15,003 bases of DNA from a virus (Duplodnaviria; Heunggongvirae; Uroviricota; Caudoviricetes). A model generated the notes under the pieces. That model did no database searches, was not told the origin of the DNA, and worked only from the letters and a program-made list of their open reading frames with translations. Shown piece by piece: positions 1 through 15,003 of this stretch. Made by a program: the position numbers and the translations under genes. Every line of letters starts with the position of its first letter. Position 1 is the first letter of the stretch. The stretch lies in IMG/VR virus record IMGVR_UViG_2695420897_000031; one strand, written 5' to 3'.

Positions 1-483
1 ATGACGAAGAAAAAAGCACATAAACCTGGTTCAGCGACCATCGCGCTTAACAAGCGCGCCCGTCACGAATACTTTATCGAAGAAGAGTTCGAAGCGGGAC
101 TTGCCCTGCAAGGCTGGGAGGTTAAATCCCTGCGCGCAGGAAAAGCCAATATCAGCGACAGCTACGTCCTTCTGCGTGACGGAGAGGCATTTCTGTTTGG
201 CGCTAACATCACGCCAATGGCCGTGGCCTCCACGCATGTGGTGTGCGATCCTACCCGTACCCGCAAGTTACTTCTCAACCAACGCGAACTGGACTCATTG
301 TACGGTCGCGTCAATCGAGAAGGCTATACCGTAGTGGCGCTCTCCCTGTACTGGAAAAATGCCTGGTGCAAAGTGAAAATCGGCGTCGCCAAAGGTAAAA
401 AACAGCACGATAAACGTTCAGATATCAAAGAACGCGAATGGCAGGTGGATAAAGCACGTATCATGAAAAACGCCCACCGTTAA
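1..483 (+). CDS. smpB: SsrA-binding protein SmpB (tmRNA partner in trans-translation)
   Basis: 160-aa ORF that I recognise along its full length as enterobacterial SmpB ([55 protein letters not shown]...KNAHR). It lies immediately upstream of ssrA, as in E. coli. Confidence 0.97.
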
Positions 484-649
484 ACCTGCACTCCAATTAT
501 TGACCAGTTCCTCACCGCGCCTCCCTCTCCGGCGGCGCGAATGAACATCTTATTGGCTATCACATCCGACACAAATGTTGCCATCCCATTGCTTAATCGA
601 ATAAAAATCAGGCTACATGGGTGCTAAATCTTTAACGATAACGCCATTG

Positions 650-690
650 AGGCTGGTCATGGCGCTCATAAATCTGGTATACTTACCTTT
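650..690 (+). promoter_or_regulatory. putative ssrA promoter region (-10-like TATACT at 678-683)
   Basis: TATACT hexamer sits 15-20 nt upstream of the mature tmRNA 5' end at 698, consistent with a short 5' leader on the precursor. I could not place a -35 element confidently. Confidence 0.35.
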
Positions 691-697
691 ACACATT

Positions 698-1060
698 GGG
701 GCTGATTCTGGATTCGACGGGATTTGCGAAACCCAAGGTGCATGCCGAGGGGCGGTTGGCCTCGTAAAAAGCCGCAAAAAATAGTCGCAAACGACGAAAA
801 CTACGCTTTAGCAGCTTAATAACCTGCTTAGAGCCCTCTCTCCCTAGCCTCCGCTCTTAGGACGGGGATCAAGAGAGGTCAAACCCAAAAGAGATCGCGT
901 GGAAGCCCTGCCTGGGGTTGAAGCGTTAAAACTTAATCAGGCTAGTTTGTTAGTGGCGTGTCCGTCCGCAGCTGGCAAGCGAATGTAAAGACTGACTAAG
1001 CATGTAGTACCGAGGATGTAGGAATTTCGGACGCGGGTTCAACTCCCGCCAGCTCCACCA
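698..1060 (+). ncRNA. ssrA: tmRNA (SsrA), 363 nt
   Basis: Starts GGGGCTGATTCTGGATTCGACGGG and ends with the tRNA-like GGTTCAACTCCCGCCAGCTCCACCA. The tag reading frame GCA AAC GAC GAA AAC TAC GCT TTA GCA GCT TAA (ANDENYALAA-stop) is at 787-819. Confidence 0.95.
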
Positions 1061-1188
1061 ATCATGATTGGACGGTGTAAGGACAACACCAACAAAAACA
1101 GGAAGTTAGCAGTCTCAGCAGGACACCGACCAGACGGTGAGGAGACAAAAAAGGATACGCAAAGGAGCCGCGGCTCTCAAGTGTGAAA

Positions 1189-1216
1189 GAAGCCCGCAAA
1201 TTGCGGGCTTTTTTAT
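1189..1216 (+). terminator. rho-independent terminator-like hairpin upstream of ORF1
   Basis: GC-rich inverted repeat AAGCCCGCAA / TTGCGGGCTT followed by TTTTTTATT. It lies about 130 nt downstream of the tmRNA CCA end. Confidence 0.55.
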
Positions 1217-1269
1217 TGATCAGTCAACAATAAACAGTAACCGAATGAGAATTTAATAAGGATATTCAT

Positions 1270-2301
1270 ATGGAAGCTACTGTGGATTCGATTGATTTTC
1301 TGATCCGTAGTGAAGATGATTTTCTAAACTTTCTGGAAGAAATGAAAGCCCGAGAGGGGCTTGATTCTAAAGAGTTTATTTTCCCTAACGTAAAGTTTGC
1401 AGGCTGGCCATCCTTAGACATAAATGTAAAAGGAGAGCGGTATCATTCATCAATTACATCAGCAATGTTGTTTGGTATGTCAATGCTCAACGAGGAGATA
1501 CAGCGGGCGTTTGCAACCATACGATACGGATCGCAGAATCTTCAACGCTTGACTAATGAAGACAAGCAACGACTTGATATAAATTTTAAAATTAGCGAAG
1601 GTTCTAGTGATGCGGAAGGCACCACTGACAAGATCATCAACGCAGTAACTGATTTTTTGCGAGATACTATGTCTGGACTGAACGGCTGGCAGAAAATGCT
1701 TGTTATAATCACAATGGTTGGCGCGGCCAGCACATGTGGTTATCACTACATTTCAGAAAATGCCGTAACAGAAAGACATGCAACTGATCGGCAGGTTGAA
1801 ATTGCAAAAACCACATCCGATGGCATAAACAAAGCCATAGAAGCAACATTAGATTATAAAATCTATGGGAAATCAGCGATTAGCGATAAAGTTACTAGTC
1901 ACGGACAAGCAGGTAAAAGTGCTTTAGTGAAGCAATTAGCTGCTGATCCTACTGTCGAAACCGTGACTTTAGGAAATGAGAAACTAACACGACAAGACCT
2001 AAATACCTACAACAGCCGACAATCTGTAGATAGAGAACGTAAAGAACGAACTGATATATTTTCCATCAAAGGTGTAACCAGAACAGGGCCAACAAATCAG
2101 GATATTAATATTAACGTTGTTAGGGTCTCTAATGACGAATGCTTCACAATCAAAGCTTCAGCTGATGTTATCACCCAAGATGAGTTGACAGCTATTGTTG
2201 ACGCTTTGTCAAACAACTCTCATATTAAAATCAGTTACTTAGAGGTAATTGAAAAGGGTGCTGTTTCTATAGGTCAGTTCAACACTATTGTTTCAGAATA
2301 A
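1270..2301 (+). CDS. hypothetical protein, 343 aa (ORF1); unknown function, with one hydrophobic stretch
   Basis: Long uninterrupted ORF with an AAGGA Shine-Dalgarno 7 nt upstream of the ATG. Markedly AT-rich compared with the flanking pin and baseplate genes (judged by eye). Hydrophobic stretch MLVIITMVGAASTCGYHY at residues 143-160 (nt 1696-1749). No family recognised, no canonical Walker A. Confidence 0.6.
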   Translation: MEATVDSIDFLIRSEDDFLNFLEEMKAREGLDSKEFIFPNVKFAGWPSLDINVKGERYHSSITSAMLFGMSMLNEEIQRAFATIRYGSQNLQRLTNEDKQRLDINFKISEGSSDAEGTTDKIINAVTDFLRDTMSGLNGWQKMLVIITMVGAASTCGYHYISENAVTERHATDRQVEIAKTTSDGINKAIEATLDYKIYGKSAISDKVTSHGQAGKSALVKQLAADPTVETVTLGNEKLTRQDLNTYNSRQSVDRERKERTDIFSIKGVTRTGPTNQDININVVRVSNDECFTIKASADVITQDELTAIVDALSNNSHIKISYLEVIEKGAVSIGQFNTIVSE

Positions 2302-2352
2302 TCACTTAACCCCATTTATGTCGGTTGAGGTTATAAGTCACGGAGACCAGAT

Positions 2353-2697
2353 ATGTCCTTAAAGTATGCACATGAAAAATTTCATACTGCAGTACTTACT
2401 CTTGCGGGCCATGGAAGTATTCAAGAACGCTTGATTAATTCGTATGTTTTTAGCCTTGGGCATCTTAAAACAGCCGATGATATTCCAAATGCCTTACAAA
2501 GCAGGTTCGATGAATTATGTAAGGAACTGACTAAGTTTGATGCCACTGGCGATGAGGGGCGAGTTCAAGCAACAGTATCAAAACTTAACGATTTCGAGAT
2601 CAATAAACTGATCGAAGATATTGTCAGTCTTAACGATGATATTTGCATGAAATTGGCTCTGACGGATGAGACTTACCAAGACATACACCAAAGTTAA
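2353..2697 (+). CDS. hypothetical acidic protein, 114 aa (ORF2); probably co-transcribed with ORF1
   Basis: ORF starts 52 nt after ORF1 on the same strand, with GGAG 6-9 nt upstream of the ATG. AT-rich and D/E-rich. No family recognised. Confidence 0.55.
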   Translation: MSLKYAHEKFHTAVLTLAGHGSIQERLINSYVFSLGHLKTADDIPNALQSRFDELCKELTKFDATGDEGRVQATVSKLNDFEINKLIEDIVSLNDDICMKLALTDETYQDIHQS

Positions 2698-2724
2698 TTG
2701 ATTAAATTCAAAAAGTTAACGTTC

Positions 2725-2747
2725 AACCAGCCAGTTTTTGGCTGGTT
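2725..2747. terminator. hairpin between convergent ORF2 (+) and ORF70 (-), possible bidirectional terminator
   Basis: Perfect 8-bp stem AACCAGCC / GGCTGGTT with a 7-nt T-rich loop, T-rich on both flanks, located between two convergent ORFs. Confidence 0.45.
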
Positions 2748-2781
2748 TATTGTCTTATAATATTCTTGCTCGAATGATGCA

Positions 2782-2994
2782 CTATTTATGATGTAATCCG
2801 GACATCAGTTCATGGACAAGATTATCTCTTTCATTGTGTTGCAACCGTAAATGCATAGCAAAAAGGTGAGCACTATCCTCATTCCTCTTCAAGCCATGCT
2901 GTTCAAGATACCCGAAAAAACGGCTTCTCTTATCCGCTATTTCCTGAGTCTGACGTGCAACATTTACCAAATTTTCTAGCGTTTTTCTTGGCAT
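2782..2994 (-). CDS. hypothetical small protein, 70 aa (ORF70), downstream of pin on the same strand
   Basis: ORF with a strong AGGAGG Shine-Dalgarno 7 nt upstream of the ATG (reverse complement of 2995-3010). No cysteines, no recognised family. Confidence 0.5.
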   Translation of the reverse strand: MPRKTLENLVNVARQTQEIADKRSRFFGYLEQHGLKRNEDSAHLFAMHLRLQHNERDNLVHELMSGLHHK

Positions 2995-3192
2995 ACTATT
3001 TCCTCCTGAAATTGTTGTAATTCACTAGGATATTCATTTTAATTTGTATCATTTAGTACCAAAACCGCTATCAATTAATAAAGCCATCGTTGTGGTTTAC
3101 CTTGCAGCCGTTTTTTGTCATTGACTCTATGTGAAAATAATGAATCATCATGAGATTGGCTCACACGTTCTTGAATTCGACGAGCTGTGTCT

Positions 3193-3747
3193 TTATTTAT
3201 CTCCTGCCGGAAACCTCTGATACAAAGTCGATACGCCAACATCATAGATAATCGCAACTTTCTGGCGCGGAACTCCTGATGCAATTAATCGTCCGGCTTG
3301 TGCCCATTGTTCTGGTGTAAGTTTGGGACGACGTCCACCAATTCGTCCCTGTGCGCGAGCAGCTTCCAGTCCAGCTTTTGTTCGTTCAACAATCAGTTCT
3401 CGTTCCATTTCAGCCAGGGCCCCCATCACATGAAAGAAAAAGCGCCCCATTGGGGTACTGGTATCAATTGAATCCGTCAGACTACGAAAGTTGATGCCTC
3501 GTTCGCGCAACTCCTCCACCAGCACGACAAGATGCCGCATACTGCGCCCCAGTCGGTCCAGTTTCCAGACCACCAGCGTATCGCCTGCCGATAATGTCCT
3601 GAGCAGTTTTTTCAGTCCCGGCCTTTCGGACTTTGTACCGCTTATCTTGTCTTCAAAAATCAGCTCGCATCCTGCACAGTTCAGCGCATTACGTTGTAGA
3701 TCTGTGTTCTGGTCATTTGTTGACACACGTACATAGCCAATAAGCAT
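3193..3747 (-). CDS. pin: serine DNA invertase, Pin/Gin/Cin/Hin family (184 aa)
   Basis: Starts MLIGYVRVSTNDQNTDLQRNALNCAGCE... and continues with VVWKLDRLGRSMRHL and GRFFFHVMGALAEMEREL, which I recognise as the small serine invertase family. Its 5' end abuts a cix-like site and a tail-fibre cassette. The six-frame ORF extends 12 codons upstream (to 3783) but the family start is the internal ATG at 3745-3747, which has a GGGAG RBS. Symbol pin is by analogy with the e14 arrangement, not from exact identity. Confidence 0.9.
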   Translation of the reverse strand: MLIGYVRVSTNDQNTDLQRNALNCAGCELIFEDKISGTKSERPGLKKLLRTLSAGDTLVVWKLDRLGRSMRHLVVLVEELRERGINFRSLTDSIDTSTPMGRFFFHVMGALAEMERELIVERTKAGLEAARAQGRIGGRRPKLTPEQWAQAGRLIASGVPRQKVAIIYDVGVSTLYQRFPAGDK

Positions 3748-3801
3748 GGTAGATCTCCCTGACAAAAGCAGGAATGATGCCATTTGCTCGTTATTTCTGC
3801 A

Positions 3802-3827
3802 TTTTCATAAACGTTGGTTTAAGAGCA
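3802..3827. other. cix-like recombination crossover site, pin-proximal (TTTTCATAAACG TT GGTTTAAGAGCA)
   Basis: 26-bp site with imperfect dyad symmetry around a central TT, resembling gix/cix/hix sites (AAACC-NN-GGTTT core). Sequence identity with the Sc-proximal site at 14085-14110 begins exactly at the central dinucleotide. Confidence 0.7.
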
Positions 3828-4124
3828 AGCGGGCAGTACACCGATAATTTGTTATTTACAGGTCCTGATGGTCTTAAGATTCAGGTGTTTCGCCGGACGC
3901 TCGCAAATTTGACTACTGTCGGTGTAGTAAATTCTGTGCCAGTGACTTTCCCTGTCCCGTTCCCTGTTAATTGCTGGGGCGTTTTTTCTACCAAATTAAC
4001 ATGGGTTCAGATAACTAACTCATGCGAGTGGGTAAGCAATACAGGATTTACCGCTCAGGTCATGATGAATATTGCTGTAAATACAAACACCTCAGACGCT
4101 ATGTTTTTAGCTATAGGATATTAA
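3816..4124 (+). other. tail-fibre variable C-terminal cassette SvA, promoterless copy facing pin (silent orientation)
   Basis: Identical to the C-terminal 103 codons of the tail-fibre CDS at 13808-14407, but here it has no constant N-terminal part. The six-frame ORF 3774..4124 is a read-through from the pin leader and not a real start. Confidence 0.65.
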
Positions 4125-4125
4125 T

Positions 4126-4566
4126 ATGAATCGTTTTGTGTTCAGTCCATCTGAGTCCCGTTTTTATGCCATCGAGTGGCAGGCTGATTATGTTGATAAT
4201 AATTGTTGGCCACATGATGCCATTAACGTTAGTGACAGTATTTATTATGAGTTTTCCGGCACTCCCCCTACAGGTAAGCAACTTATAACTTTAAATAACA
4301 TGCCAGCATGGGGTGATATTCCTCCACCTACACGAGAAGAATTAATTGTCGCTGCTGATGTGGAGAAGCAAAAAAGAATAGATTTAGCCAATGATTACAT
4401 GAACGGTAAGCAATGGCCTGGTAAAGCAGCTATTGGTCGTCTGAAAGGTGGGGAACTGGCACAATATAATTTGTGGCTGGATTATCTGGACGCACTGGAG
4501 CTGGTCGATACCGCCAGTGCGCCAGATATTGAATGGCCTACGCCTCCGGCAGTTCAGGCAAGATGA
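4126..4566 (+). CDS. tail fibre assembly protein (Tfa/Mu-U-like chaperone), variant A
   Basis: 146-aa ORF beginning 2 nt after the SvA stop. Sequence (MNRFVFSPSESRFYAIEWQADY...LWLDYLDALELVDTASAPDIEWP) is typical of the phage Tfa family that pairs with invertible fibre cassettes. Confidence 0.8.
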   Translation: MNRFVFSPSESRFYAIEWQADYVDNNCWPHDAINVSDSIYYEFSGTPPTGKQLITLNNMPAWGDIPPPTREELIVAADVEKQKRIDLANDYMNGKQWPGKAAIGRLKGGELAQYNLWLDYLDALELVDTASAPDIEWPTPPAVQAR

Positions 4567-4736
4567 CATCCGGCGCGGTGCTGGTATCTGTTGCCGTCAC
4601 CGCGTCAATGTAATCCAGCACAGTGTTAAGGCTGGTTGTTTCTGCCTGCGTCAGTTTACGTCCGGCCTGCAATTTCAGCTGAATCAGACTGATTGAAGCC
4701 ATTGCAGCATCAATCAGTGACTGGCGCTGTGCTTCA
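4538..4736 (-). pseudogene. 3' fragment of tail fibre assembly gene tfaB, cut at junction 4736|4737
   Basis: Reverse complement of the 3' end of the complete tfaB at 8924-9526. It differs from the other copies at one base (4708 C versus T, Thr to Ala in the tfaB frame). It ends abruptly where smpB-derived sequence resumes. Confidence 0.6.
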
Positions 4737-5091
4737 CCTGCGCGCAGGAAAAGCCAATATCAGCGACAGCTACGTCCTTCTGCGTGACGGAGAGGCATTT
4801 CTGTTTGGCGCTAACATCACGCCAATGGCCGTGGCCTCCACGCATGTGGTGTGCGATCCTACCCGTACCCGCAAGTTACTTCTCAACCAACGCGAACTGG
4901 ACTCATTGTACGGTCGCGTCAATCGAGAAGGCTATACCGTAGTGGCGCTCTCCCTGTACTGGAAAAATGCCTGGTGCAAAGTGAAAATCGGCGTCGCCAA
5001 AGGTAAAAAACAGCACGATAAACGTTCAGATATCAAAGAACGCGAATGGCAGGTGGATAAAGCACGTATCATGAAAAACGCCCACCGTTAA
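4737..5091 (+). pseudogene. smpB: smpB 3' fragment (lacks the first 128 nt)
   Basis: Identical to smpB 129-483. The six-frame ORF 4693..5091 is an artefactual fusion of tfaB antisense sequence to the smpB frame. Confidence 0.7.
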
Positions 5092-5305
5092 ACCTGCACT
5101 CCAATTATTGACCAGTTCCTCACCGCGCCTCCCTCTCCGGCGGCGCGAATGAACATCTTATTGGCTATCACATCCGACACAAATGTTGCCATCCCATTGC
5201 TTAATCGAATAAAAATCAGGCTACATGGGTGCTAAATCTTTAACGATAACGCCATTGAGGCTGGTCATGGCGCTCATAAATCTGGTATACTTACCTTTAC
5301 ACATT

Positions 5306-5668
5306 GGGGCTGATTCTGGATTCGACGGGATTTGCGAAACCCAAGGTGCATGCCGAGGGGCGGTTGGCCTCGTAAAAAGCCGCAAAAAATAGTCGCAAAC
5401 GACGAAAACTACGCTTTAGCAGCTTAATAACCTGCTTAGAGCCCTCTCTCCCTAGCCTCCGCTCTTAGGACGGGGATCAAGAGAGGTCAAACCCAAAAGA
5501 GATCGCGTGGAAGCCCTGCCTGGGGTTGAAGCGTTAAAACTTAATCAGGCTAGTTTGTTAGTGGCGTGTCCGTCCGCAGCTGGCAAGCGAATGTAAAGAC
5601 TGACTAAGCATGTAGTACCGAGGATGTAGGAATTTCGGACGCGGGTTCAACTCCCGCCAGCTCCACCA
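5306..5668 (+). ncRNA. ssrA: tmRNA (SsrA), second copy
   Basis: Identical to 698-1060 (offset +4608). Confidence 0.9.
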
Positions 5669-5877
5669 ATCATGATTGGACGGTGTAAGGACAACACCAA
5701 CAAAAACAGGAAGTTAGCAGTCTCAGCAGGACACCGACCAGACGGTGAGGAGACAAAAAAGGATACGCAAAGGAGCCGCGGCTCTCAAGTGTGAAAGAAG
5801 CCCGCAAATTGCGGGCTTTTTTATTGATCAGTCAACAATAAACAGTAACCGAATGAGAATTTAATAAGGATATTCAT

Positions 5878-6909
5878 ATGGAAGCTACTGTGGATTCGAT
5901 TGATTTTCTGATCCGTAGTGAAGATGATTTTCTAAACTTTCTGGAAGAAATGAAAGCCCGAGAGGGGCTTGATTCTAAAGAGTTTATTTTCCCTAACGTA
6001 AAGTTTGCAGGCTGGCCATCCTTAGACATAAATGTAAAAGGAGAGCGGTATCATTCATCAATTACATCAGCAATGTTGTTTGGTATGTCAATGCTCAACG
6101 AGGAGATACAGCGGGCGTTTGCAACCATACGATACGGATCGCAGAATCTTCAACGCTTGACTAATGAAGACAAGCAACGACTTGATATAAATTTTAAAAT
6201 TAGCGAAGGTTCTAGTGATGCGGAAGGCACCACTGACAAGATCATCAACGCAGTAACTGATTTTTTGCGAGATACTATGTCTGGACTGAACGGCTGGCAG
6301 AAAATGCTTGTTATAATCACAATGGTTGGCGCGGCCAGCACATGTGGTTATCACTACATTTCAGAAAATGCCGTAACAGAAAGACATGCAACTGATCGGC
6401 AGGTTGAAATTGCAAAAACCACATCCGATGGCATAAACAAAGCCATAGAAGCAACATTAGATTATAAAATCTATGGGAAATCAGCGATTAGCGATAAAGT
6501 TACTAGTCACGGACAAGCAGGTAAAAGTGCTTTAGTGAAGCAATTAGCTGCTGATCCTACTGTCGAAACCGTGACTTTAGGAAATGAGAAACTAACACGA
6601 CAAGACCTAAATACCTACAACAGCCGACAATCTGTAGATAGAGAACGTAAAGAACGAACTGATATATTTTCCATCAAAGGTGTAACCAGAACAGGGCCAA
6701 CAAATCAGGATATTAATATTAACGTTGTTAGGGTCTCTAATGACGAATGCTTCACAATCAAAGCTTCAGCTGATGTTATCACCCAAGATGAGTTGACAGC
6801 TATTGTTGACGCTTTGTCAAACAACTCTCATATTAAAATCAGTTACTTAGAGGTAATTGAAAAGGGTGCTGTTTCTATAGGTCAGTTCAACACTATTGTT
6901 TCAGAATAA
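5878..6909 (+). CDS. hypothetical protein, 343 aa (ORF1, second copy)
   Basis: Identical translation to 1270-2301. Confidence 0.6.
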   Translation: MEATVDSIDFLIRSEDDFLNFLEEMKAREGLDSKEFIFPNVKFAGWPSLDINVKGERYHSSITSAMLFGMSMLNEEIQRAFATIRYGSQNLQRLTNEDKQRLDINFKISEGSSDAEGTTDKIINAVTDFLRDTMSGLNGWQKMLVIITMVGAASTCGYHYISENAVTERHATDRQVEIAKTTSDGINKAIEATLDYKIYGKSAISDKVTSHGQAGKSALVKQLAADPTVETVTLGNEKLTRQDLNTYNSRQSVDRERKERTDIFSIKGVTRTGPTNQDININVVRVSNDECFTIKASADVITQDELTAIVDALSNNSHIKISYLEVIEKGAVSIGQFNTIVSE

Positions 6910-6960
6910 TCACTTAACCCCATTTATGTCGGTTGAGGTTATAAGTCACGGAGACCAGAT

Positions 6961-7305
6961 ATGTCCTTAAAGTATGCACATGAAAAATTTCATACTGCAG
7001 TACTTACTCTTGCGGGCCATGGAAGTATTCAAGAACGCTTGATTAATTCGTATGTTTTTAGCCTTGGGCATCTTAAAACAGCCGATGATATTCCAAATGC
7101 CTTACAAAGCAGGTTCGATGAATTATGTAAGGAACTGACTAAGTTTGATGCCACTGGCGATGAGGGGCGAGTTCAAGCAACAGTATCAAAACTTAACGAT
7201 TTCGAGATCAATAAACTGATCGAAGATATTGTCAGTCTTAACGATGATATTTGCATGAAATTGGCTCTGACGGATGAGACTTACCAAGACATACACCAAA
7301 GTTAA
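6961..7305 (+). CDS. hypothetical acidic protein, 114 aa (ORF2, second copy)
   Basis: Identical translation to 2353-2697. Confidence 0.55.
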   Translation: MSLKYAHEKFHTAVLTLAGHGSIQERLINSYVFSLGHLKTADDIPNALQSRFDELCKELTKFDATGDEGRVQATVSKLNDFEINKLIEDIVSLNDDICMKLALTDETYQDIHQS

Positions 7306-7389
7306 TTGATTAAATTCAAAAAGTTAACGTTCAACCAGCCAGTTTTTGGCTGGTTTATTGTCTTATAATATTCTTGCTCGAATGATGCA

Positions 7390-7602
7390 CTATTTATGAT
7401 GTAATCCGGACATCAGTTCATGGACAAGATTATCTCTTTCATTGTGTTGCAACCGTAAATGCATAGCAAAAAGGTGAGCACTATCCTCATTCCTCTTCAA
7501 GCCATGCTGTTCAAGATACCCGAAAAAACGGCTTCTCTTATCCGCTATTTCCTGAGTCTGACGTGCAACATTTACCAAATTTTCTAGCGTTTTTCTTGGC
7601 AT
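7390..7602 (-). CDS. hypothetical small protein, 70 aa (ORF70, second copy)
   Basis: Identical translation to 2782-2994. Confidence 0.5.
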   Translation of the reverse strand: MPRKTLENLVNVARQTQEIADKRSRFFGYLEQHGLKRNEDSAHLFAMHLRLQHNERDNLVHELMSGLHHK

Positions 7603-7800
7603 ACTATTTCCTCCTGAAATTGTTGTAATTCACTAGGATATTCATTTTAATTTGTATCATTTAGTACCAAAACCGCTATCAATTAATAAAGCCATCGTTG
7701 TGGTTTACCTTGCAGCCGTTTTTTGTCATTGACTCTATGTGAAAATAATGAATCATCATGAGATTGGCTCACACGTTCTTGAATTCGACGAGCTGTGTCT

Positions 7801-8355
7801 TTATTTATCTCCTGCCGGAAACCTCTGATACAAAGTCGATACGCCAACATCATAGATAATCGCAACTTTCTGGCGCGGAACTCCTGATGCAATTAATCGT
7901 CCGGCTTGTGCCCATTGTTCTGGTGTAAGTTTGGGACGACGTCCACCAATTCGTCCCTGTGCGCGAGCAGCTTCCAGTCCAGCTTTTGTTCGTTCAACAA
8001 TCAGTTCTCGTTCCATTTCAGCCAGGGCCCCCATCACATGAAAGAAAAAGCGCCCCATTGGGGTACTGGTATCAATTGAATCCGTCAGACTACGAAAGTT
8101 GATGCCTCGTTCGCGCAACTCCTCCACCAGCACGACAAGATGCCGCATACTGCGCCCCAGTCGGTCCAGTTTCCAGACCACCAGCGTATCGCCTGCCGAT
8201 AATGTCCTGAGCAGTTTTTTCAGTCCCGGCCTTTCGGACTTTGTACCGCTTATCTTGTCTTCAAAAATCAGCTCGCATCCTGCACAGTTCAGCGCATTAC
8301 GTTGTAGATCTGTGTTCTGGTCATTTGTTGACACACGTACATAGCCAATAAGCAT
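7801..8355 (-). CDS. pin: serine DNA invertase, Pin/Gin/Cin/Hin family (second copy)
   Basis: Identical to 3193-3747 (offset +4608). Confidence 0.9.
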   Translation of the reverse strand: MLIGYVRVSTNDQNTDLQRNALNCAGCELIFEDKISGTKSERPGLKKLLRTLSAGDTLVVWKLDRLGRSMRHLVVLVEELRERGINFRSLTDSIDTSTPMGRFFFHVMGALAEMERELIVERTKAGLEAARAQGRIGGRRPKLTPEQWAQAGRLIASGVPRQKVAIIYDVGVSTLYQRFPAGDK

Positions 8356-8409
8356 GGTAGATCTCCCTGACAAAAGCAGGAATGATGCCATTTGCTCGTT
8401 ATTTCTGCA

Positions 8410-8435
8410 TTTTCATAAACGTTGGTTTGGGAGAA
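8410..8435. other. cix-like crossover site, pin-proximal, second copy (TTTTCATAAACG TT GGTTTGGGAGAA)
   Basis: Left half and central TT are the same as at 3802-3815. The right half belongs to the SvB cassette instead of SvA. Confidence 0.7.
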
Positions 8436-8924
8436 GGCTCTGCATTACCTGTTGGTGTGCCTGTTCCGTGGCCTTCCGCCACTCCGCCGACAGGCTGGCT
8501 GAAATGCAACGGTGCCGCTTTTTCTGCTGAAGAATACCCGGAACTGGCAAAGGCTTATCCGACAAATAAATTGCCTGATTTACGTGGTGAGTTTATTCGT
8601 GGCTGGGATGACGGGCGTGGTATTGATGCTGTACGTGCCTTGCTAAGTCTTCAGAATGGAGGAGTGGAATCACACACCCACCAAGGGCAGCTCTTCAGAG
8701 TTAGTGATTATCGTACAAAAGAAATACCAGCATCAGAAGTTATGGGAAGAGGATATATTGCAAGCCTGACGCCGGGTGCTGATAGCCCACTTGATTTTGA
8801 TGATTATTATGTATCTTCTAATCCAAATGGATATTTTGTCGGGAATCAGAGAACAACAGCATATGGGATAAATGAAACCCGTCCACGGAATATTGCATTT
8901 AACTATATCGTGAGGGCTGCATAA
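8424..8924 (+). other. tail-fibre variable C-terminal cassette SvB (silent orientation, facing away from pin)
   Basis: Encodes ...LKCNGAAFSAEEYPELAKAYPTNKLPDLRGEFIRGWDDGRGID...ETRPRNIAFNYIVRAA, which resembles the receptor-binding C-terminal domain common to enterobacterial phage side tail fibres. The frame is continuous with the crossover site, so inversion would fuse it to the constant N-terminus. Confidence 0.7.
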
Positions 8925-9526
8925 TGGATAACGCTGTATTAAATAGCGAGTTTATTGCTACAAAGGCGGGGAATATTACCGTCTATAACTATGATGGCGA
9001 AACACGGGAATATATTTCCACATCAACTGAATATCTTGCCGTTGGTGTCGGTATCCCTGCATATTCCTGTTTAGATGCCCCTGGCACATACAAAGCTGGT
9101 TATGCAATCTGCCGATCTGTAGATTTTAACTCATGGGAATATGTGCCAGACCATCGCGGTGAAATCGTCTTTAGCACCGAAACAGGAGAATCAAAAGAAA
9201 TCACAGCTCCGGGTGATTACCCTGATAATACAACCACTATCGCCCCGTTAACGCCATACGATAAATGGGATGGTGAGAAATGGGTGACGGATACCGAAGC
9301 ACAGCATAGCGCCGCAGTAGATGCAGCAGAAGCACAGCGCCAGTCACTGATTGATACTGCAATGGCTTCAATCAGTCTGATTCAGCTGAAATTGCAGGCC
9401 GGACGTAAACTGACGCAGGCAGAAACAACCAGCCTTAACACTGTGCTGGATTACATTGACGCGGTGACGGCAACAGATACCAGCACCGCGCCGGATGTCA
9501 TCTTGCCTGAACTGCCGGAGGCGTAG
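8924..9526 (+). CDS. tail fibre assembly protein (Tfa family), variant B
   Basis: 200-aa ORF whose ATG overlaps the SvB stop by 1 nt. Its C-terminal region (...LDYIDAVTATDTSTAPDVILPELP) parallels the C-terminus of tfaA. Confidence 0.75.
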   Translation: MDNAVLNSEFIATKAGNITVYNYDGETREYISTSTEYLAVGVGIPAYSCLDAPGTYKAGYAICRSVDFNSWEYVPDHRGEIVFSTETGESKEITAPGDYPDNTTTIAPLTPYDKWDGEKWVTDTEAQHSAAVDAAEAQRQSLIDTAMASISLIQLKLQAGRKLTQAETTSLNTVLDYIDAVTATDTSTAPDVILPELPEA

Positions 9527-9938
9527 GCCATTCAATATCTGGCGCACTGGCGGTATCGACCAGCTCCAGTGCGTCCAGATAATCCAGCCACAAATTATAT
9601 TGTGCCAGTTCCCCACCTTTCAGACGACCAATAGCTGCTTTACCAGGCCATTGCTTACCGTTCATGTAATCATTGGCTAAATCTATTCTTTTTTGCTTCT
9701 CCACATCAGCAGCGACAATTAATTCTTCTCGTGTAGGTGGAGGAATATCACCCCATGCTGGCATGTTATTTAAAGTTATAAGTTGCTTACCTGTAGGGGG
9801 AGTGCCGGAAAACTCATAATAAATACTGTCACTAACGTTAATGGCATCATGTGGCCAACAATTATTATCAACATAATCAGCCTGCCACTCGATGGCATAA
9901 AAACGGGACTCAGATGGACTGAACACAAAACGATTCAT
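9498..9938 (-). CDS. tail fibre assembly protein, variant A (inverted copy)
   Basis: Identical translation to 4126-4566. Its 3' end overlaps tfaB by 29 bp in convergent orientation. Confidence 0.8.
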   Translation of the reverse strand: MNRFVFSPSESRFYAIEWQADYVDNNCWPHDAINVSDSIYYEFSGTPPTGKQLITLNNMPAWGDIPPPTREELIVAADVEKQKRIDLANDYMNGKQWPGKAAIGRLKGGELAQYNLWLDYLDALELVDTASAPDIEWPTPPAVQAR

Positions 9939-9939
9939 A

Positions 9940-10248
9940 TTAATATCCTATAGCTAAAAACATAGCGTCTGAGGTGTTTGTATTTACAGCAATATTCATC
10001 ATGACCTGAGCGGTAAATCCTGTATTGCTTACCCACTCGCATGAGTTAGTTATCTGAACCCATGTTAATTTGGTAGAAAAAACGCCCCAGCAATTAACAG
10101 GGAACGGGACAGGGAAAGTCACTGGCACAGAATTTACTACACCGACAGTAGTCAAATTTGCGAGCGTCCGGCGAAACACCTGAATCTTAAGACCATCAGG
10201 ACCTGTAAATAACAAATTATCGGTGTACTGCCCGCTTGCTCTTAAACC
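9940..10248 (-). other. tail-fibre variable cassette SvA (inverted copy), ending at a cix half-site
   Basis: Reverse complement of 3816-4124. Here it is not preceded by the constant fibre N-terminus; it meets gp44-like sequence instead. Confidence 0.65.
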
Positions 10249-10250
10249 AA
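10237..10250. other. cix half-site plus central AA, ending exactly at the non-canonical junction 10250|10251
   Basis: TGCTCTTAAACC AA matches the reverse complement of the cix right half and centre. The expected partner half (GGTTTTCGAGA, as at 14085-14096 in reverse) is replaced by ATGGCCGGGAGA. Confidence 0.6.
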
Positions 10251-10251
10251 A

Positions 10252-11211
10252 TGGCCGGGAGATGAGGGTATCACCACGCTTCAGCCGCGCATTAAAAACG
10301 GTTCAAAAGTGGAAGTGCTGATTGGTGATGAGCTGGTGATCACCGGCTGGGTGGAGGCGACTCCCGTTCGTTACGATGCCCGTTCGGTCAGCACCGGTAT
10401 TGCCGGACGTAGTCTGACGGCTGACCTGATTGACTGTGCAGCCGAACCGACACAGTTTAACGGACGCTCGCTGGTGCAGATTGCGCAGGCGCTTGCTGCG
10501 CCTTTCGGCATTGAGGTGGTGAACAGCGGTGCGCCATCGGGTGTTATTCCTGATGTTCAGCCTGATCACGGTGAAACGGTGATTGAGGTAATCAACAAAA
10601 TACTCGGTCAGCAGCAGGCGCTGGCTTACGACGACCCGCACGGTAGGCTGGTGATTGGTGGTATTGGCTCAACGCGGGCACATACCGCGCTGGTACTTGG
10701 GGAAAACATCCTTTCCTGTGATACGGAGAAGAGTATCCGGGAGCGGTTTTCTGTTTACCAGGTGGCGGGGCAGCGTGCCGGAAACGACGATGATTTCGGT
10801 GAGGCCACCACCACCGCGCTGCGGGCCCGCACAGAGGACGCATTTATTGCCCGTTACCGTCCGATGTATATCAGGCAGACAGGGCAGGCTACGGGGGCAG
10901 GCTGTATTGCCCGTGCGGACTTTGAAGCCCGACAACGGGCGGCGCGGACGGATGAAACCACCTATGTGGTGCAGGGCTGGCGACAGGGTAACGGTACGCT
11001 GTGGCAGCCCAACCAGCGGGTGATTGTCTTCGATCCGGTCTGTGGTTTCGACAATACCGAACTGCTTGTCTCGGAAGTCACGTTTACTCAGGACCAGAAC
11101 GGCACCCTGACGGAAATCCGTGTCGGCCCGCCTGATGCTTATCTGCCTGAACCCGAAGCTCCCGGCGCGCGGAAAAAGAAAAAAGCCAGAGTACAGGAGG
11201 ACCCGTTCTGA
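10252..11211 (+). pseudogene. 5'-truncated Mu gp44 (P) / P2 gpD-like baseplate or tail protein
   Basis: Reading frame is open from the junction (WPGDEGITTLQPRIKNGSKVEVLIGDE...) with no start codon or RBS in a sensible position. Family assignment rests on gene order, size and GC-rich phage-like composition. The stop overlaps the next start (TGATG). Confidence 0.5.
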
Positions 11212-11759
11212 TGAGGACGATTGAAGCCATGCAGCGACAACTTCTCGGCCTGATTGGGCGGGCAGTGGTGAAAAGCATCAGTGCCGCCACGAAATGCCAG
11301 ACCGTGGATGTGTCCCTGATTGCCGGTGAACCCAAAGCCGGGGTTGAACATCTTGAACCCTACGGTTTTACCGCAAGGGCAAACAGCGGTGCGGAAGCGG
11401 TGGTGTTGTTTCCGGATGGCGACCGTTCTCATGCGGTGGTTGTTACGGTGTCGGACCGGCGCTACCGCCTGAAAGGGCTGCAGACGGGTGAGGTGGCTGT
11501 CTATGACGATCAGGGGCAGTCCGTGACGCTGACCCGGGAGGGGATCGTGGTGGACGGTGCAGGTAAAACGATCACGTTTCGCAATTCACCTAAAGCACGT
11601 TTTGAAATGGACCTGGAAGTGACCGGACAGGTGAAAGACCTGTGCGACTCCGGCGGCACCACCATGTCAGCGATGCGGCTTGCCTATAACGGGCATCGTC
11701 ACAGAGAGAACGGTCAGGGCAGTAACACCGACAAACCTGATAAAGCGATGGAGGCATGA
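11211..11759 (+). CDS. baseplate assembly protein V / Mu gp45-like spike (182 aa)
   Basis: Contains ...PYGFTARANSGAEAVVLFPDGDRSHAVVVTVSDRRYRLKGLQTGEVAVYDDQGQSVTL... and a DSGGTT motif, which I recognise as the Mu gp45 / P2 gpV family. Translationally coupled to neighbours. Confidence 0.7.
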   Translation: MRTIEAMQRQLLGLIGRAVVKSISAATKCQTVDVSLIAGEPKAGVEHLEPYGFTARANSGAEAVVLFPDGDRSHAVVVTVSDRRYRLKGLQTGEVAVYDDQGQSVTLTREGIVVDGAGKTITFRNSPKARFEMDLEVTGQVKDLCDSGGTTMSAMRLAYNGHRHRENGQGSNTDKPDKAMEA

Positions 11760-12184
11760 TGGAACTGTGGCTGACGGTGAGCGGTAAACGCACCTGCGCC
11801 AGCGCACCGCTGGATCCGCTGACCCGCGCCGTGGTGATTTCCCTGTTTACCTGGCGGCGGGCGGAGCCTGATGACAACGCCGACGTCCCGATGGGATGGT
11901 GGGGGGATACCTGGCCTGCGGTACAGAATGACCGTTACGGCTCCCGACTGTGGCTGCTTCAGCGCAGCAAACTGACCAATCAGCTGGTGCAGACGGTAAG
12001 GGGGTATATCCGCGAATGCCTGCAATGGATGATTGATGACGGCGTGGTGTCCCGTATTGATCTGGATATCCGCCGTACCGGGATTAATGAACTGGGTAAC
12101 AGTATCACTCTCTGGCGTCGTGACGGACCGGTAATGATTTCTTTTGATGATCTGTGGAGTGCGATAACGCATGGCGGACAGTGA
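11756..12184 (+). CDS. Mu gp46-like baseplate protein (142 aa)
   Basis: Small ORF overlapping its neighbours by 4 and 14 nt, in the position of gp46 in Mu-like tail modules. Confidence 0.5.
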   Translation: MMELWLTVSGKRTCASAPLDPLTRAVVISLFTWRRAEPDDNADVPMGWWGDTWPAVQNDRYGSRLWLLQRSKLTNQLVQTVRGYIRECLQWMIDDGVVSRIDLDIRRTGINELGNSITLWRRDGPVMISFDDLWSAITHGGQ

Positions 12185-13229
12185 ATTTCAGCGCCCGACG
12201 CTGGCAGAAAATATCAGTATGCTCCGTAACGATTTATTCGCCAGGCTGGACGTCAGCAACACGCTCCGGCGCATGGATGAAGACGTGCGGGCAAAGGTGT
12301 ATGCGGCGGCGCTGCATACGGTCTACGGGTACATCGATTATCTGGCAATGAATATGCTGCCTGACCTGTGCGATGAGTCCTGGCTGGCGCGACATGCTGC
12401 GATGAAACGGTGTCCGCGCAAGGGGGCCACGGCTGCCAGCGGGTATATGCGCTGGGAAGGTGTCAGCGATGGCCTGAAGGTGACTGCCGGGAGCGTGATT
12501 CAGCGCGATGACCTGGTTCAGTACACGGCAACTGCCGATGCAACCAGCTCCGGTGGTGTCCTGCGTGTGCCGATCACTTGCTCAACTACAGGCGCGGTCG
12601 GTAACGCTGACGACGGTACGGCATTAATCCTGGTCACGCCGGTGAATGGTCTGCCGTCTTCCGGTGTTGCAGATACCCTGACTGGCGGATTCGATACTGA
12701 AGATCTGGAAACGTGGCGCGCCCGCGTCATTGAGCGGTATTACTGGACGCCGCAGGGCGGGGCTGACGGGGACTATGTCGTCTGGGCTAAAGAAGTGCCC
12801 GGCATTACCCGCGCATGGACATACCGTCACTGGATGGGAACGGGAACTGTCGGTGTGATGATTGCCAGCAGTGACCTGATTAATCCCATTCCGGAAGAAT
12901 CAACGGAAACGGCGGCAAGACAACATATCGGGCCACTGGCCCCGGTGGCAGGCTCTGATTTGTATGTATTCAGGCCGGTGGCACATAAAGTGGATTTTCA
13001 TATCCGCGTGACGCCGGATACACCGGAAATACGGGCTGCCATCACCGCGGAGTTGCGTTCGTTCCTGCTGCGTGATGGTTATCCGCAGGGAGAACTGAAG
13101 GTGTCGCGTATCAGTGAGGCGATTTCCGGTGCGAACGGGGAATACAGCCATCAGTTGCTTGCACCGGCAGACAATATCTCCATTGCAAAAAATGAACTGG
13201 CGGTTCTGGGGACGATTTCATGGACGTGA
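12171..13229 (+). CDS. baseplate J-like protein (Mu gp47 / P2 gpJ family, 352 aa)
   Basis: Size, position between gp46-like and gp48-like genes, and overall sequence character are consistent with baseplate J. Confidence 0.6.
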
Positions 13230-13804
13230 CAAACGATGATTACATCCGTCTGTTGTCTGCACTGTTGCCCCCCGGTCCGGCGTGGTCAGCCAGCGATCCG
13301 GCGATTGCCGGTTCGGCACCGTCATTAACCCGCGTTCATCAGCGTGCGGATGCCCTGATGCGGGAGCTGGATCCGCGCACCACCACCGAACTGATAAACC
13401 GCTGGGAGCGTCTGTGCGGCCTGCCGGATGAATGTATTCCCGCAGGGACACAGACCCTTCGCCAGCGTCAGCAACGACTGGATGCGAAGGTTAACCTGGC
13501 GGGCGGCATCAATGAGGATTTTTACCTTGCACAGCTTGCTGCCCTGGGCAGACCAGACGCTACCATCACGCGATACGACAAAAGCACGTTCACCTGCTCA
13601 TCAGCCTGCACTGACGCTGTGAATGCGCCGGAATGGCGGTATTACTGGCAGGTCAACATGCCAGCCGCCACCAACACCACCTGGATGACATGTGGCGATC
13701 CCTGTGATTCCGCACTGCGTATCTGGGGCGACACCGTTGTCGAGTGTGTGCTTAACAAACTCTGCCCGTCGCATACCTACGTAATTTTTAAATATCCGGA
13801 GTAA
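13220..13804 (+). CDS. Mu gp48-like tail protein (P2 gpI-like, 194 aa)
   Basis: Position immediately upstream of the tail-fibre gene, overlapping the baseplate J-like gene by 10 nt. Confidence 0.5.
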
Positions 13805-13807
13805 TTC

Positions 13808-14407
13808 ATGCATCGTATAGACACGAAAACCGCGCAGAAGGATAAGTTCGGCGCGGGTAAGAACGGTTTTACCCGTGGTAACCCCCAGACCGGCACACCT
13901 GCCACCGATCTGGATGATGACTACTTTGACATGTTGCAGGAGGAGCTTTGCAGCGTTGTGGAGGCCTCCGGTGCCAGCCTGGAGAAAGGGCGGCACGACC
14001 AGTTGCTTACCGCGCTTCGTGCGCTGCTGTTAAGCCGCAAAAATCCGTTTGGCGATATCAAATCGGACGGCACGGTGAAAACGGCTCTCGAAAACCTTGG
14101 TTTAAGAGCAAGCGGGCAGTACACCGATAATTTGTTATTTACAGGTCCTGATGGTCTTAAGATTCAGGTGTTTCGCCGGACGCTCGCAAATTTGACTACT
14201 GTCGGTGTAGTAAATTCTGTGCCAGTGACTTTCCCTGTCCCGTTCCCTGTTAATTGCTGGGGCGTTTTTTCTACCAAATTAACATGGGTTCAGATAACTA
14301 ACTCATGCGAGTGGGTAAGCAATACAGGATTTACCGCTCAGGTCATGATGAATATTGCTGTAAATACAAACACCTCAGACGCTATGTTTTTAGCTATAGG
14401 ATATTAA
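13808..14407 (+). CDS. short side tail fibre protein: constant N-terminus (Sc) fused to variable cassette SvA (199 aa)
   Basis: N-terminus [75 protein letters not shown] is a widely conserved enterobacterial prophage tail-fibre N-terminus. The cix site at 14085-14110 lies inside the CDS at the Sc/Sv boundary, as in Mu S and e14 fibres. Confidence 0.8.
14085..14110. other. cix-like crossover site, Sc-proximal (TCTCGAAAACC TT GGTTTAAGAGCA), inside the tail-fibre CDS
   Basis: Same right half and central TT as 3802-3827, with a different left half. Both halves contain the AAACC/GGTTT core. Confidence 0.7.
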
Positions 14408-14408
14408 T

Positions 14409-14849
14409 ATGAATCGTTTTGTGTTCAGTCCATCTGAGTCCCGTTTTTATGCCATCGAGTGGCAGGCTGATTATGTTGATAATAATTGTTGGCCACATGA
14501 TGCCATTAACGTTAGTGACAGTATTTATTATGAGTTTTCCGGCACTCCCCCTACAGGTAAGCAACTTATAACTTTAAATAACATGCCAGCATGGGGTGAT
14601 ATTCCTCCACCTACACGAGAAGAATTAATTGTCGCTGCTGATGTGGAGAAGCAAAAAAGAATAGATTTAGCCAATGATTACATGAACGGTAAGCAATGGC
14701 CTGGTAAAGCAGCTATTGGTCGTCTGAAAGGTGGGGAACTGGCACAATATAATTTGTGGCTGGATTATCTGGACGCACTGGAGCTGGTCGATACCGCCAG
14801 TGCGCCAGATATTGAATGGCCTACGCCTCCGGCAGTTCAGGCAAGATGA
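14409..14849 (+). CDS. tail fibre assembly protein, variant A (expressed orientation, downstream of Sc-SvA)
   Basis: Identical translation to 4126-4566. Confidence 0.8.
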   Translation: MNRFVFSPSESRFYAIEWQADYVDNNCWPHDAINVSDSIYYEFSGTPPTGKQLITLNNMPAWGDIPPPTREELIVAADVEKQKRIDLANDYMNGKQWPGKAAIGRLKGGELAQYNLWLDYLDALELVDTASAPDIEWPTPPAVQAR

Positions 14850-15003
14850 CATCCGGCGCGGTGCTGGTATCTGTTGCCGTCACCGCGTCAATGTAATCCA
14901 GCACAGTGTTAAGGCTGGTTGTTTCTGCCTGCGTCAGTTTACGTCCGGCCTGCAATTTCAGCTGAATCAGACTGATTGAAGCCATTGCAGTATCAATCAG
15001 TGA
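14821..15003 (-). CDS. tail fibre assembly protein variant B, 3' portion (runs off the window end)
   Basis: Reverse complement of the 3' end of tfaB (8924-9526). Carries T at the position where the copy at 4708 has C. Confidence 0.6.
   Translation of the reverse strand, partial: SLIDTAMASISLIQLKLQAGRKLTQAETTSLNTVLDYIDAVTATDTSTAPDVILPELPEA

Follow-up and report, generated by a model that had tools for sequence, protein, structure and literature searches.

An e14-type invertible tail-fibre segment at ssrA of Escherichia coli, presented in a 15-kb window that is most likely a composite of three pieces of one locus

Main finding

The tail-fibre switch in the window (by which we always mean the whole stretch of 15,003 nucleotides that was analysed, IMG/VR record IMGVR_UViG_2695420897_000031) is an invertible segment of the Din family, of the same type as the e14 P segment and the Mu G segment, and all features of membership in this family that we tested were found. 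The locus belongs to a prophage of the e14/SfV-like kind, which has a Mu-type baseplate and ssrA of E. coli as its integration site. A first-pass annotation of the same DNA had proposed that both orientations of the switch are captured in one window as two co-resident copies. This view could not be maintained. The window shows both orientations because three overlapping stretches of one single-copy locus are joined in it at two unsupported junctions, neither of which occurs in any other public sequence. Taking everything together, we consider it probable that this is a standard e14-type P segment and that the window is a chimera or mis-join of three overlapping pieces from a sample mixed for orientation.

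Content of the window

Sc denotes the constant N-terminal region of the fibre, SvA and SvB denote the two alternative variable cassettes, and tfaA and tfaB their chaperone genes. The features are as follows.

1-483, + strand: smpB, complete, 160 aa (open reading frame; chromosomal flank; 100% identical to E. coli smpB)
698-1060, + strand: ssrA (tmRNA), the integration site of the prophage (ARAGORN and annotated loci of relatives); identical second copy at 5306-5668
1270-2994: cargo block between ssrA and pin; duplicate at 5878-7602
1270-2301, + strand: cargo ORF of 343 aa
2353-2697, + strand: cargo ORF of 114 aa
2782-2994, - strand: cargo ORF of 70 aa
3193-3747, - strand: pin copy 1, serine DNA invertase, 184 aa (open reading frame, domains, identity to PinE and Gin)
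3774-4124, + strand: pin-proximal ORF of 116 aa, a 13-codon leader (MMPFARYFCIFIN...) in frame with the SvA exon (3816-4124), without the Sc head
3802-3827, + strand: crossover site of 26 bp, pin side and SvA (TTTTCATAAACG TT GGTTTAAGAGCA)
4126-4566, + strand: tfaA, tail-fibre assembly chaperone of SvA (Caudo_TAP, E = 1.5e-25); further copies at 9498-9938 (-) and 14409-14849 (+)
4538-4735, - strand: 3' fragment of tfaB, cut by junction 1, with a singleton SNP at 4708
4736: junction 1, an orphan A between tfaB (4735) and smpB nucleotide 129 (4737)
4737-8421, + strand: exact second copy of 129-3813 (truncated smpB, ssrA, cargo, pin)
7801-8355, - strand: pin copy 2, identical to copy 1
8382-8924, + strand: pin-proximal ORF with SvB, 180 aa
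8410-8435, + strand: crossover site of 26 bp, pin side and SvB (TTTTCATAAACG TT GGTTTGGGAGAA)
8422-10250: complete invertible segment, 1,829 bp, colinear with the natural loci L001 and L004; its parts are the SvB exon (8424-8924, +), tfaB (8924-9526, +), tfaA (9498-9938, -) and the SvA exon (9940-10248, -)
10239-10250: right-hand half-site only (TGCTCTTAAACC AA)
10251: junction 2, an orphan A that replaces the Sc-side half of the site
10252-13804, + strand: Mu-type baseplate block, reverse-complemented relative to the natural order
10309-11211: baseplate block, GpP/Gp44-like gene, 5'-truncated
11211-11759: baseplate block, Gp45/V
11756-12184: baseplate block, GP46
12171-13229: baseplate block, Baseplate_J
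13220-13804: baseplate block, Gp48/YmfQ
13808-14407, + strand: expressed tail-fibre gene, Sc (13808-14096) plus SvA, 199 aa
14085-14110, + strand: crossover site of 26 bp, Sc side and SvA (CTCTCGAAAACC TT GGTTTAAGAGCA)
14409-15003: third tfaA (14409-14849, +), followed by the 3' end of tfaB (14821-15003, -), which runs off the end of the window

Three overlapping pieces of one locus

Positions 129-3813 and 4737-8421 are the same sequence, with zero differences over 3,685 nt. A further repeat, block X, consists of the SvA exon, tfaA and the 3' end of tfaB and is present three times, forward at 3814-4735, reverse-complemented at 9329-10250 and forward at 14097-15003, with a single mismatch among the copies, at 4708. 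Between the repeats lie SvB-tfaB (8422-9322) and the Mu-type baseplate block that ends in Sc (10252-14096). As far as the plain arrangement is concerned, the first-pass annotation was right: SvA-tfaA stands beside pin copy 1 and faces away from it (ORFs 3774-4124 and 4126-4566, both on the + strand), SvB-tfaB stands beside pin copy 2 (8382-8924 and 8924-9526, +), where SvA-tfaA is inverted (9498-9938 and 9940-10248, -), and 3814-4735 is the reverse complement of 9329-10250 except for the one mismatch.

The window can be divided into three pieces. In piece 1 (1-4735) the invertible segment is flipped. Piece 2 (4737-10250) contains the unflipped state and breaks off precisely at the core of the crossover site, and piece 3 (10252-15003) comes from the opposite strand, again with the segment unflipped. 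We rebuilt a single-copy locus of 9,487 bp from 1-128, 4737-10250 and the reverse complement of 10252-14096, and this locus is colinear with the natural contigs L001 and L024. L001 (strain H1827/12) runs continuously from pin through the segment to the baseplate genes, in the order smpB, ssrA, cargo, pin (-), site, SvB-tfaB (+), tfaA-SvA (-), site, Sc (-), YmfQ (-), baseplate J (-). L024, which possesses the same cargo, matches both flanks of the rebuilt locus at 99.6-99.9%, and the baseplate block is 99.8% identical to FDAARGOS_1287.

The invertase, the crossover sites and the fibre cassettes

Pin possesses a Resolvase domain (E = 1.5e-51) and an HTH_7 domain, and the YVRVS context of its active site is intact. 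A small serine recombinase with catalytic domain, active-site serine and C-terminal HTH is therefore located beside the segment, as is typical of the Din family. The protein is identical to PinE of E. coli K-12 at 181 of 184 amino acids (98%) and to Gin of phage Mu (PDB 3uj3) at 141 of 181 (78%). On the nucleotide level, pin and K-12 pinE share 94% identity, with 10 silent-type differences within the first 200 nt.

The crossover sites had been read from the points of sequence divergence, with strand exchange at or near the central TT. The divergence does confine the crossover to TTGGTTT (3814-3820, 8422-8428 and 14097-14103), but it does not lead to the TT itself, where we place the exchange on the assumption that this enzyme behaves like the rest of its family. 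The motif AAACSTTGGTTT is found at three positions, compared to an expectation of 0.22. All three full sites (3802-3827, 8410-8435 and 14085-14110) are direct repeats with TT on the + strand and the fourth is only a half-site, so that the window as written contains no invertible pair. An inverted pair of 26-bp sites with a shared 2-bp core, TT and AA on one strand, is present in the rebuilt locus and in L001. The pin-side site at 8410-8435 is identical to the pin-side site of e14 in K-12, and the left half of the site at 14085-14110 is identical to the stfP site of K-12. For e14, the inverted repeat has been reported as TTGGTTTGGGAGAAGG (PMC12529663).

Sc has a length of about 96-97 aa and corresponds to the N-terminus of StfP with one substitution. 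The Sc-SvA fusion at 13808-14407, which the first reading had identified, is indeed intact, encodes 199 aa and is found as an identical protein on natural contigs. The Sc-SvB fibre that inversion should create is predicted to be in frame as well, with 263 aa and the end ...ETRPRNIAFNYIVRAA. SvA contains a Gp53-like_C domain, and SvB contains a Collar domain and is StfE-like. The products of tfaA and tfaB both belong to Caudo_TAP; that of tfaB is 90% identical to TfaE, that of tfaA only 42% identical to TfaP, and the two genes converge with their 3' ends overlapping by 29 nt. At the core, the Sc ORF and the leader ORF beside pin share one codon phase and, therefore, either cassette is in frame at either position. 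A constant 5' exon outside the segment and two opposed in-frame 3' exons, each with its own chaperone, are thus present, as is characteristic of Din-family switches.

Domains, identity to PinE and sites all agree with a Pin-driven switch of the G-segment or e14 P-segment type, the known class to which it had been assigned. The remark that its cassettes and sites can be defined with precision brings no novelty, as the pin-side site is the K-12 site and Sc-SvA, SvB and the tfa genes are already annotated in RefSeq. Class, sites and cassettes are already known and annotated, and there is nothing new in them. Fibre switches of the Pin/e14 type have been known since the 1980s.

Origin of the two junctions

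Both junctions carry a single A (4736 and 10251) that is absent from both parental sequences. On the right side of junction 1, the first base of piece 2 is also that of the perfect 12-bp palindrome CCTGCGCGCAGG, one of only about 10 palindromes in the locus with arms of at least 6 bp. At its other end, piece 2 stops directly after the AA core, in the centre of the hix quasi-palindrome at the Sc-side site.

BLAST searches with junction-spanning sequences returned half-matches only, for both junctions in 5,426 complete E. coli genomes and likewise in PLSDB. The exact junction strings were found in none of the GTDB genomes, IMG/VR and the JGI metagenomes, and a look-up of the ORFs that the junctions create gave none on record. 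The truncated baseplate ORF of 300 aa recurs in several unrelated truncation or frameshift contexts and is therefore not diagnostic. The cargo/pin block is single-copy in 46 of the 46 carriers among the complete genomes. Of the two signs of a genuine segmental duplication that we looked for in these data, junctions in independent data and a copy number above one in relatives, neither was found. Judged by the absence of the junctions elsewhere and by their anatomy, a chimeric molecule, read or contig, or a mis-join is the most likely origin of the window.

That public assemblies do yield spurious small records at such loci follows from two examples. CP019275.1 (p13P477T-2, L029) is a 37-kb "plasmid" that actually consists of recN-smpB-ssrA and a P2-like prophage. 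NZ_CP148395.1 (pZ1323HEC0010-5, L036) is a 2,637-bp "plasmid" equal to positions 1177-3813 of the window, with one end precisely on the hix core and the other immediately behind a 12-bp palindrome. What these records have in common with the window is that smpB-ssrA or pin-cargo sequence of the chromosome is presented as a small record of its own, but they are simple excerpts, whereas the window joins three pieces and two orientations.

It is unlikely that the window is a faithful stretch of chromosome that underwent a recent local rearrangement, in which 4.6 kb were duplicated directly (from smpB nucleotide 129 to inside tfaB) and the 3.8-kb baseplate block was joined back in inverted orientation. 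Such a structure could have arisen when replication switched template at sequence prone to hairpins, or when a break set by Pin in the Sc-side site was repaired illegitimately. It would agree with the origin of all pieces from one 9.5-kb locus and with their consistency with one strain (100% identity between the copies of the smpB-pin block, and one nucleotide of difference among those of X), as well as with the position of the ends of piece 2, at a perfect 12-bp palindrome and right after the AA core where Pin would cut. Moreover, in FDAARGOS_1287 the two parts of a P2-like prophage lie on either side of an e14-like prophage, with the split at the fibre segments. However, the junctions are missing from the 5,426 complete genomes and from all other collections searched, the cargo block is never duplicated in its 46 carriers, and the partner sequences at smpB 129, at tfaB 4735 and in the baseplate gene do not resemble hix (2/12 at junction 2; no AAACC/GGTTT). 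The untemplated base at both joins and the zero divergence between the copies fit a chimera better, and piece 3 in its natural order would return into an inverted smpB, which is a difficult topology for a chromosome.

A definite route in vivo can be formulated for the triplication, although we regard it as highly unlikely. A Pin-made double-strand break at the Sc-side core would have been connected illegitimately, and inverted, with a position at a distance of 3.8 kb. The 4.6-kb direct duplication would go back to a second switch of template, at the palindrome of 12 bp within smpB. If this were true, the cell would contain two pin genes, two ssrA genes and three sites in the same orientation, and an invertase-initiated genome rearrangement would have been captured.

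Three further models were discarded. Junctions made by Pin itself at secondary (pseudo) sites were ruled out, because the partners at smpB 129, at tfaB 4735 and in the baseplate gene lack AAACC/GGTTT and any likeness to a crossover site, and because every register requires an extra or mutated base, as is the case at junction 2 with its half-site symmetry of 2/12. A tandem-inversion-duplication (forward-inverted-forward), with or without later Pin inversions, was rejected by reasoning, since the window has two forward smpB-pin blocks in a row and no site pair flanks a single smpB-pin copy that would be able to flip. A circular molecule that was read more than once does not fit either, as the repeat spacings of 4,608 and 10,283 bp agree with no single period and the start and end of the window match only in block X.

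Some details of the junctions and copies deserve mention in their own right. The AA core of the Sc-side site is the point at which the orientation states of a mixed population diverge, and it is also the predicted position of the Pin cut. The start of piece 2 at the edge of a palindrome and its end at the centre of hix fit chimera formation or template switching. Three pieces from one 9.5-kb locus would be unlikely under random ligation; this speaks against an artefact of that kind and for a locus-specific process, which might equally be a real rearrangement in vivo. At 4708, the C corresponds to the allele that L024 and L025 have in a paralogous tfa cassette. A pure sequencing error at this position is therefore unsupported and, as a natural allele, the C is uninformative; it is also a point against an artefact in that it need not be an error.

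If the favoured reading, a chimera from an orientation-mixed sample, is correct, the window would indirectly indicate flipping of the switch in the source culture, and would be no evidence of two copies of the pin switch. Caution is needed in general with a switch that seems to be caught in both states within one contig, as this can be a chimera from an orientation-mixed culture and not a duplicated locus. Should the source reads confirm both states, this would be routine evidence of an active switch in that strain.

Role of the switch

The Din family of DNA invertases comprises Gin, Hin, Cin and Pin, and by analogy to its members the switch would work as follows. Dimers of Pin would bind to both 26-bp sites, which are inverted relative to each other, and cleave the DNA at the TT/AA in their middle, leaving a stagger of 2 nt. 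With Fis bound to a putative enhancer in the 5' part of pin, the subunits would rotate and the strands would be religated. The segment of 1.83 kb would thereby flip, and Sc would be fused in frame either to SvA, with tfaA as chaperone, or to SvB, with tfaB as chaperone. In analogy to the family, the altered fibre might then bring about a change in receptor specificity. Such a host-range role is plausible by homology, since the relatives of this locus keep full tail and head modules.

A different role has been described for e14, where inversion of the P segment yields StfE2, which blocks adsorption of T2, so that a pin-proximal chimeric ORF provides phage defence (PMC12529663). We consider it rather improbable that the switch described here, though real, serves mainly the defence of the host, with the leader ORF fused to the pin-facing cassette (116 aa with SvA, 180 aa with SvB) as a headless receptor-binding protein that would block the adsorption of other phages in the manner of StfE2. 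In that case, the cassette beside pin would not be silent. The pin-proximal ORF (3774-4124) is the counterpart of the stfE/StfE2 position in e14, and both the start of this ORF and its reading frame through the core are conserved in K-12 stfE (MPFACYFFIFINVGL vs MMPFARYFCIFINVGL). A defence role would be in line with this conservation, with the reported block of T2 adsorption by StfE2 (PMC12529663) and with the adjoining slot, which in related loci holds mcrA, an EcoRII-type R-M system or GmrSD. However, a scan of the segment for promoters and terminators remained at background level, and the promoter signal relevant to the leader ORF is no higher than that. The AGGA motif directly abuts the ATG, which is a poor spacing for a ribosome-binding site, and SvA as a cassette differs from StfP of K-12. 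Moreover, the related loci retain complete tail and head modules, so that a host-range role in the virion is available.

Inversion among natural genomes

Both orientations of exactly the SvA/SvB pair occur in natural genomes. Between L001 and L016, which have their cargo at ssrA in common, the 7,529 bp that lead to the site agree at 100%; the next 1,700 bp stand in opposite orientation, with an identity of 99.94%. A sister cassette pair at this locus behaves likewise in L002 and L003. The two orientations are thus found among otherwise identical genomes with the breakpoint at the core of the site, as is expected of the Din family. A census of the four junctions with probes of 161 nt in the 5,426 complete E. 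coli genomes gave 11 occurrences of pin|SvA, 8 of Sc|SvA, 860 of pin|SvB and 561 of Sc|SvB.

It appears extremely improbable that the segment is a frozen relic, whose orientations go back to old events or to homologous recombination between prophages and not to ongoing activity of Pin. Many related loci are decayed, L016 has a deletion beside the segment, and in FDAARGOS_1287 the annotation splits the Sc-SvA gene, all of which might point in this direction. However, the crossover sites and pin are intact, the latter at 98% identity to the active PinE, and the inversion of L001 against L016 between 7.5-kb flanks of 100% identity indicates that the flip was recent. Inversion of e14 has also been documented within clonal cultures (PMC4272514, PMC12529663), in the first of these studies from counts of junction types in reads.

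Fibre segments can mediate much larger rearrangements, as is illustrated by the P2-like prophage of FDAARGOS_1287 that is split around an e14-like one.

Comparison with known systems

The closest counterpart is the e14 P segment of K-12 with PinE (stfP-tfaP / tfaE-stfE, pinE, mcrA), with which the invertase (181/184), the pin-side site and the Sc-side left half-site are shared. The architecture is the same, too: Sc, site, Sv and tfa, inverted tfa and Sv, site, pin and then cargo. A cassette of the StfE type and a TfaE (90% identical) are also present here, and the segment has 1,829 bp compared to 1,797 bp in e14. There are also clear differences. The prophage described here is integrated at ssrA and e14 at icd, and the second cassette is the gp53-like-C SvA, with a tfaA that is only 42% identical to TfaP. 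As a consequence of this different second cassette, the two sites share only TTGGTTT, whereas those of e14 share an inverted repeat of 16 bp. The cargo consists of three unannotated ORFs in place of mcrA, and e14 is a remnant, in contrast to the relatives of this locus, which have kept a module of Mu-type baseplate and tail genes in full.

The Mu G segment with Gin belongs to the same family of serine invertases (Gin is 78% identical), as do the P1 C segment with Cin and Hin of Salmonella. The sites of 12+2+12 bp with AAACC-NN-GGTTT cores are common to these systems and to the one described here, as are the alternative C-terminal fibre exons, each with its own chaperone. The fibre proteins and the phage backbone are different, and the dependence on Fis and the enhancer is assumed here by homology.

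The inversion of e14 driven in trans by PinQ and PinR, which was described as a defence (Kirigo et al., NAR 2025, PMC12529663), acts on the same target architecture and site sequence. The equivalent pin-proximal leader ORF would likewise give a chimeric, headless fibre fragment after inversion; the cassette is SvA here and the variable part of StfP there.

Cargo genes

The three cargo ORFs gave no match in Pfam, NCBIfam or PADLOC. For the 343-aa protein, the predicted structure has a pLDDT of 64.5, which is of low confidence, and a comparison of the model to the PDB gave no match at E below 0.01. The cargo block is present in 46 of the 5,426 complete E. coli genomes. Since the same slot holds restriction and defence genes elsewhere, the 343-aa and 114-aa proteins encoded beside pin are the only lead at this locus with real potential for discovery. 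In the model of the 343-aa protein, the C-terminal domain shows a weak, OB-like resemblance only.

Cargo genes in the interval between ssrA and pin

The ORFs between ssrA and the serine DNA invertase gene pin form a cargo block that is present twice in the window:

1270-2994: cargo ORFs of 343, 114 and 70 aa in the ssrA-pin interval
5878-7602: second copy of the same ORFs

None of the three ORFs gave a match in Pfam, NCBIfam or PADLOC. In the search made, the family of the 343-aa protein was confined to Enterobacterales and every member is labelled hypothetical. The AlphaFold model of this protein is of low confidence and offers nothing beyond a weakly OB-like C-terminal domain. The genomic slots occupied by distant homologues of the 343-aa protein are of two kinds. 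At two loci (L033 and L034) the homologue lies between the cI repressor gene, which is directly upstream, and N, the slot that rexAB occupies in lambda; at two others (L030 and L031) it is found at a prophage end, adjoining DinI and tail-fibre genes. In sister loci, the slot next to pin is filled by mcrA, by an EcoRII-type restriction-modification system together with a LEM-3 GIY-YIG gene, by GmrSD or by DUF4145. The cargo gene is a candidate for a defence gene expressed in the lysogen.

A small circular record consisting of pin and the cargo block

A 2,637-bp circular "plasmid" of a complete E. coli assembly (NZ_CP148395.1) equals 1177-3813 of the window and contains exactly pin and the cargo block. 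One of its ends lies at the core of the hix crossover site (3813|3814), the other immediately after the 12-bp palindrome GAGCCGCGGCTC (1165-1176). Since a cargo probe matched only this record within its genome, the chromosome of the strain appears to lack the cargo block. The record could be an assembly artefact or else an excised or amplified circle. The same end pattern, a palindrome edge and a hix core, is also seen in the middle piece of the window (4737-10250).

Rearrangements and breakpoints in related prophages

In strain FDAARGOS_1287 (NZ_CP070071.1, 78-136 kb), a P2-like prophage is present in two halves:

78-84 kb: lysis genes to H
122-130 kb: invertase and FI to ogr

A complete e14/SfV-like prophage sits between these halves and the breakpoints are located at tail-fibre invertible segments. 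The implication is that two different prophages recombined over a span of about 45 kb, via crossover sites or homologous cassettes.

In three unrelated contexts, the GpP/Gp44-like baseplate gene (10252-10330 in the window) breaks off at nearly the same position, to within about 20 bp:

Window: at junction 2 (10251)
Locus L007: adjoining an integrase fragment
Locus L008: third context

The 300-aa ORF of the cut gene is also called in frameshifted copies (loci L009 and L010). The near-identical position could reflect a recurrent breakpoint or be a mere effect of gene calling.

A further record, CP019275.1 (37,446 bp), carries the label of a plasmid in its deposition and also figures in phage listings. 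In fact it consists of the chromosomal recN-bamE-ratA-smpB-ssrA region and a P2-like prophage whose fibre segment is invertible, and frameshifts are abundant throughout. The contig was probably misassembled or mis-circularised.

The three copies of the repeat composed of the SvA exon, tfaA and the 3' end of tfaB differ at a single position, 4708, which is C in copy 1 (3814-4735) and T in the others. This difference changes Thr to Ala in the fragment of the chaperone gene tfaB (4538-4735, minus strand). The C is the allele of a paralogous tfa cassette in L024 and L025, the two loci nearest to the window by flank sequence.
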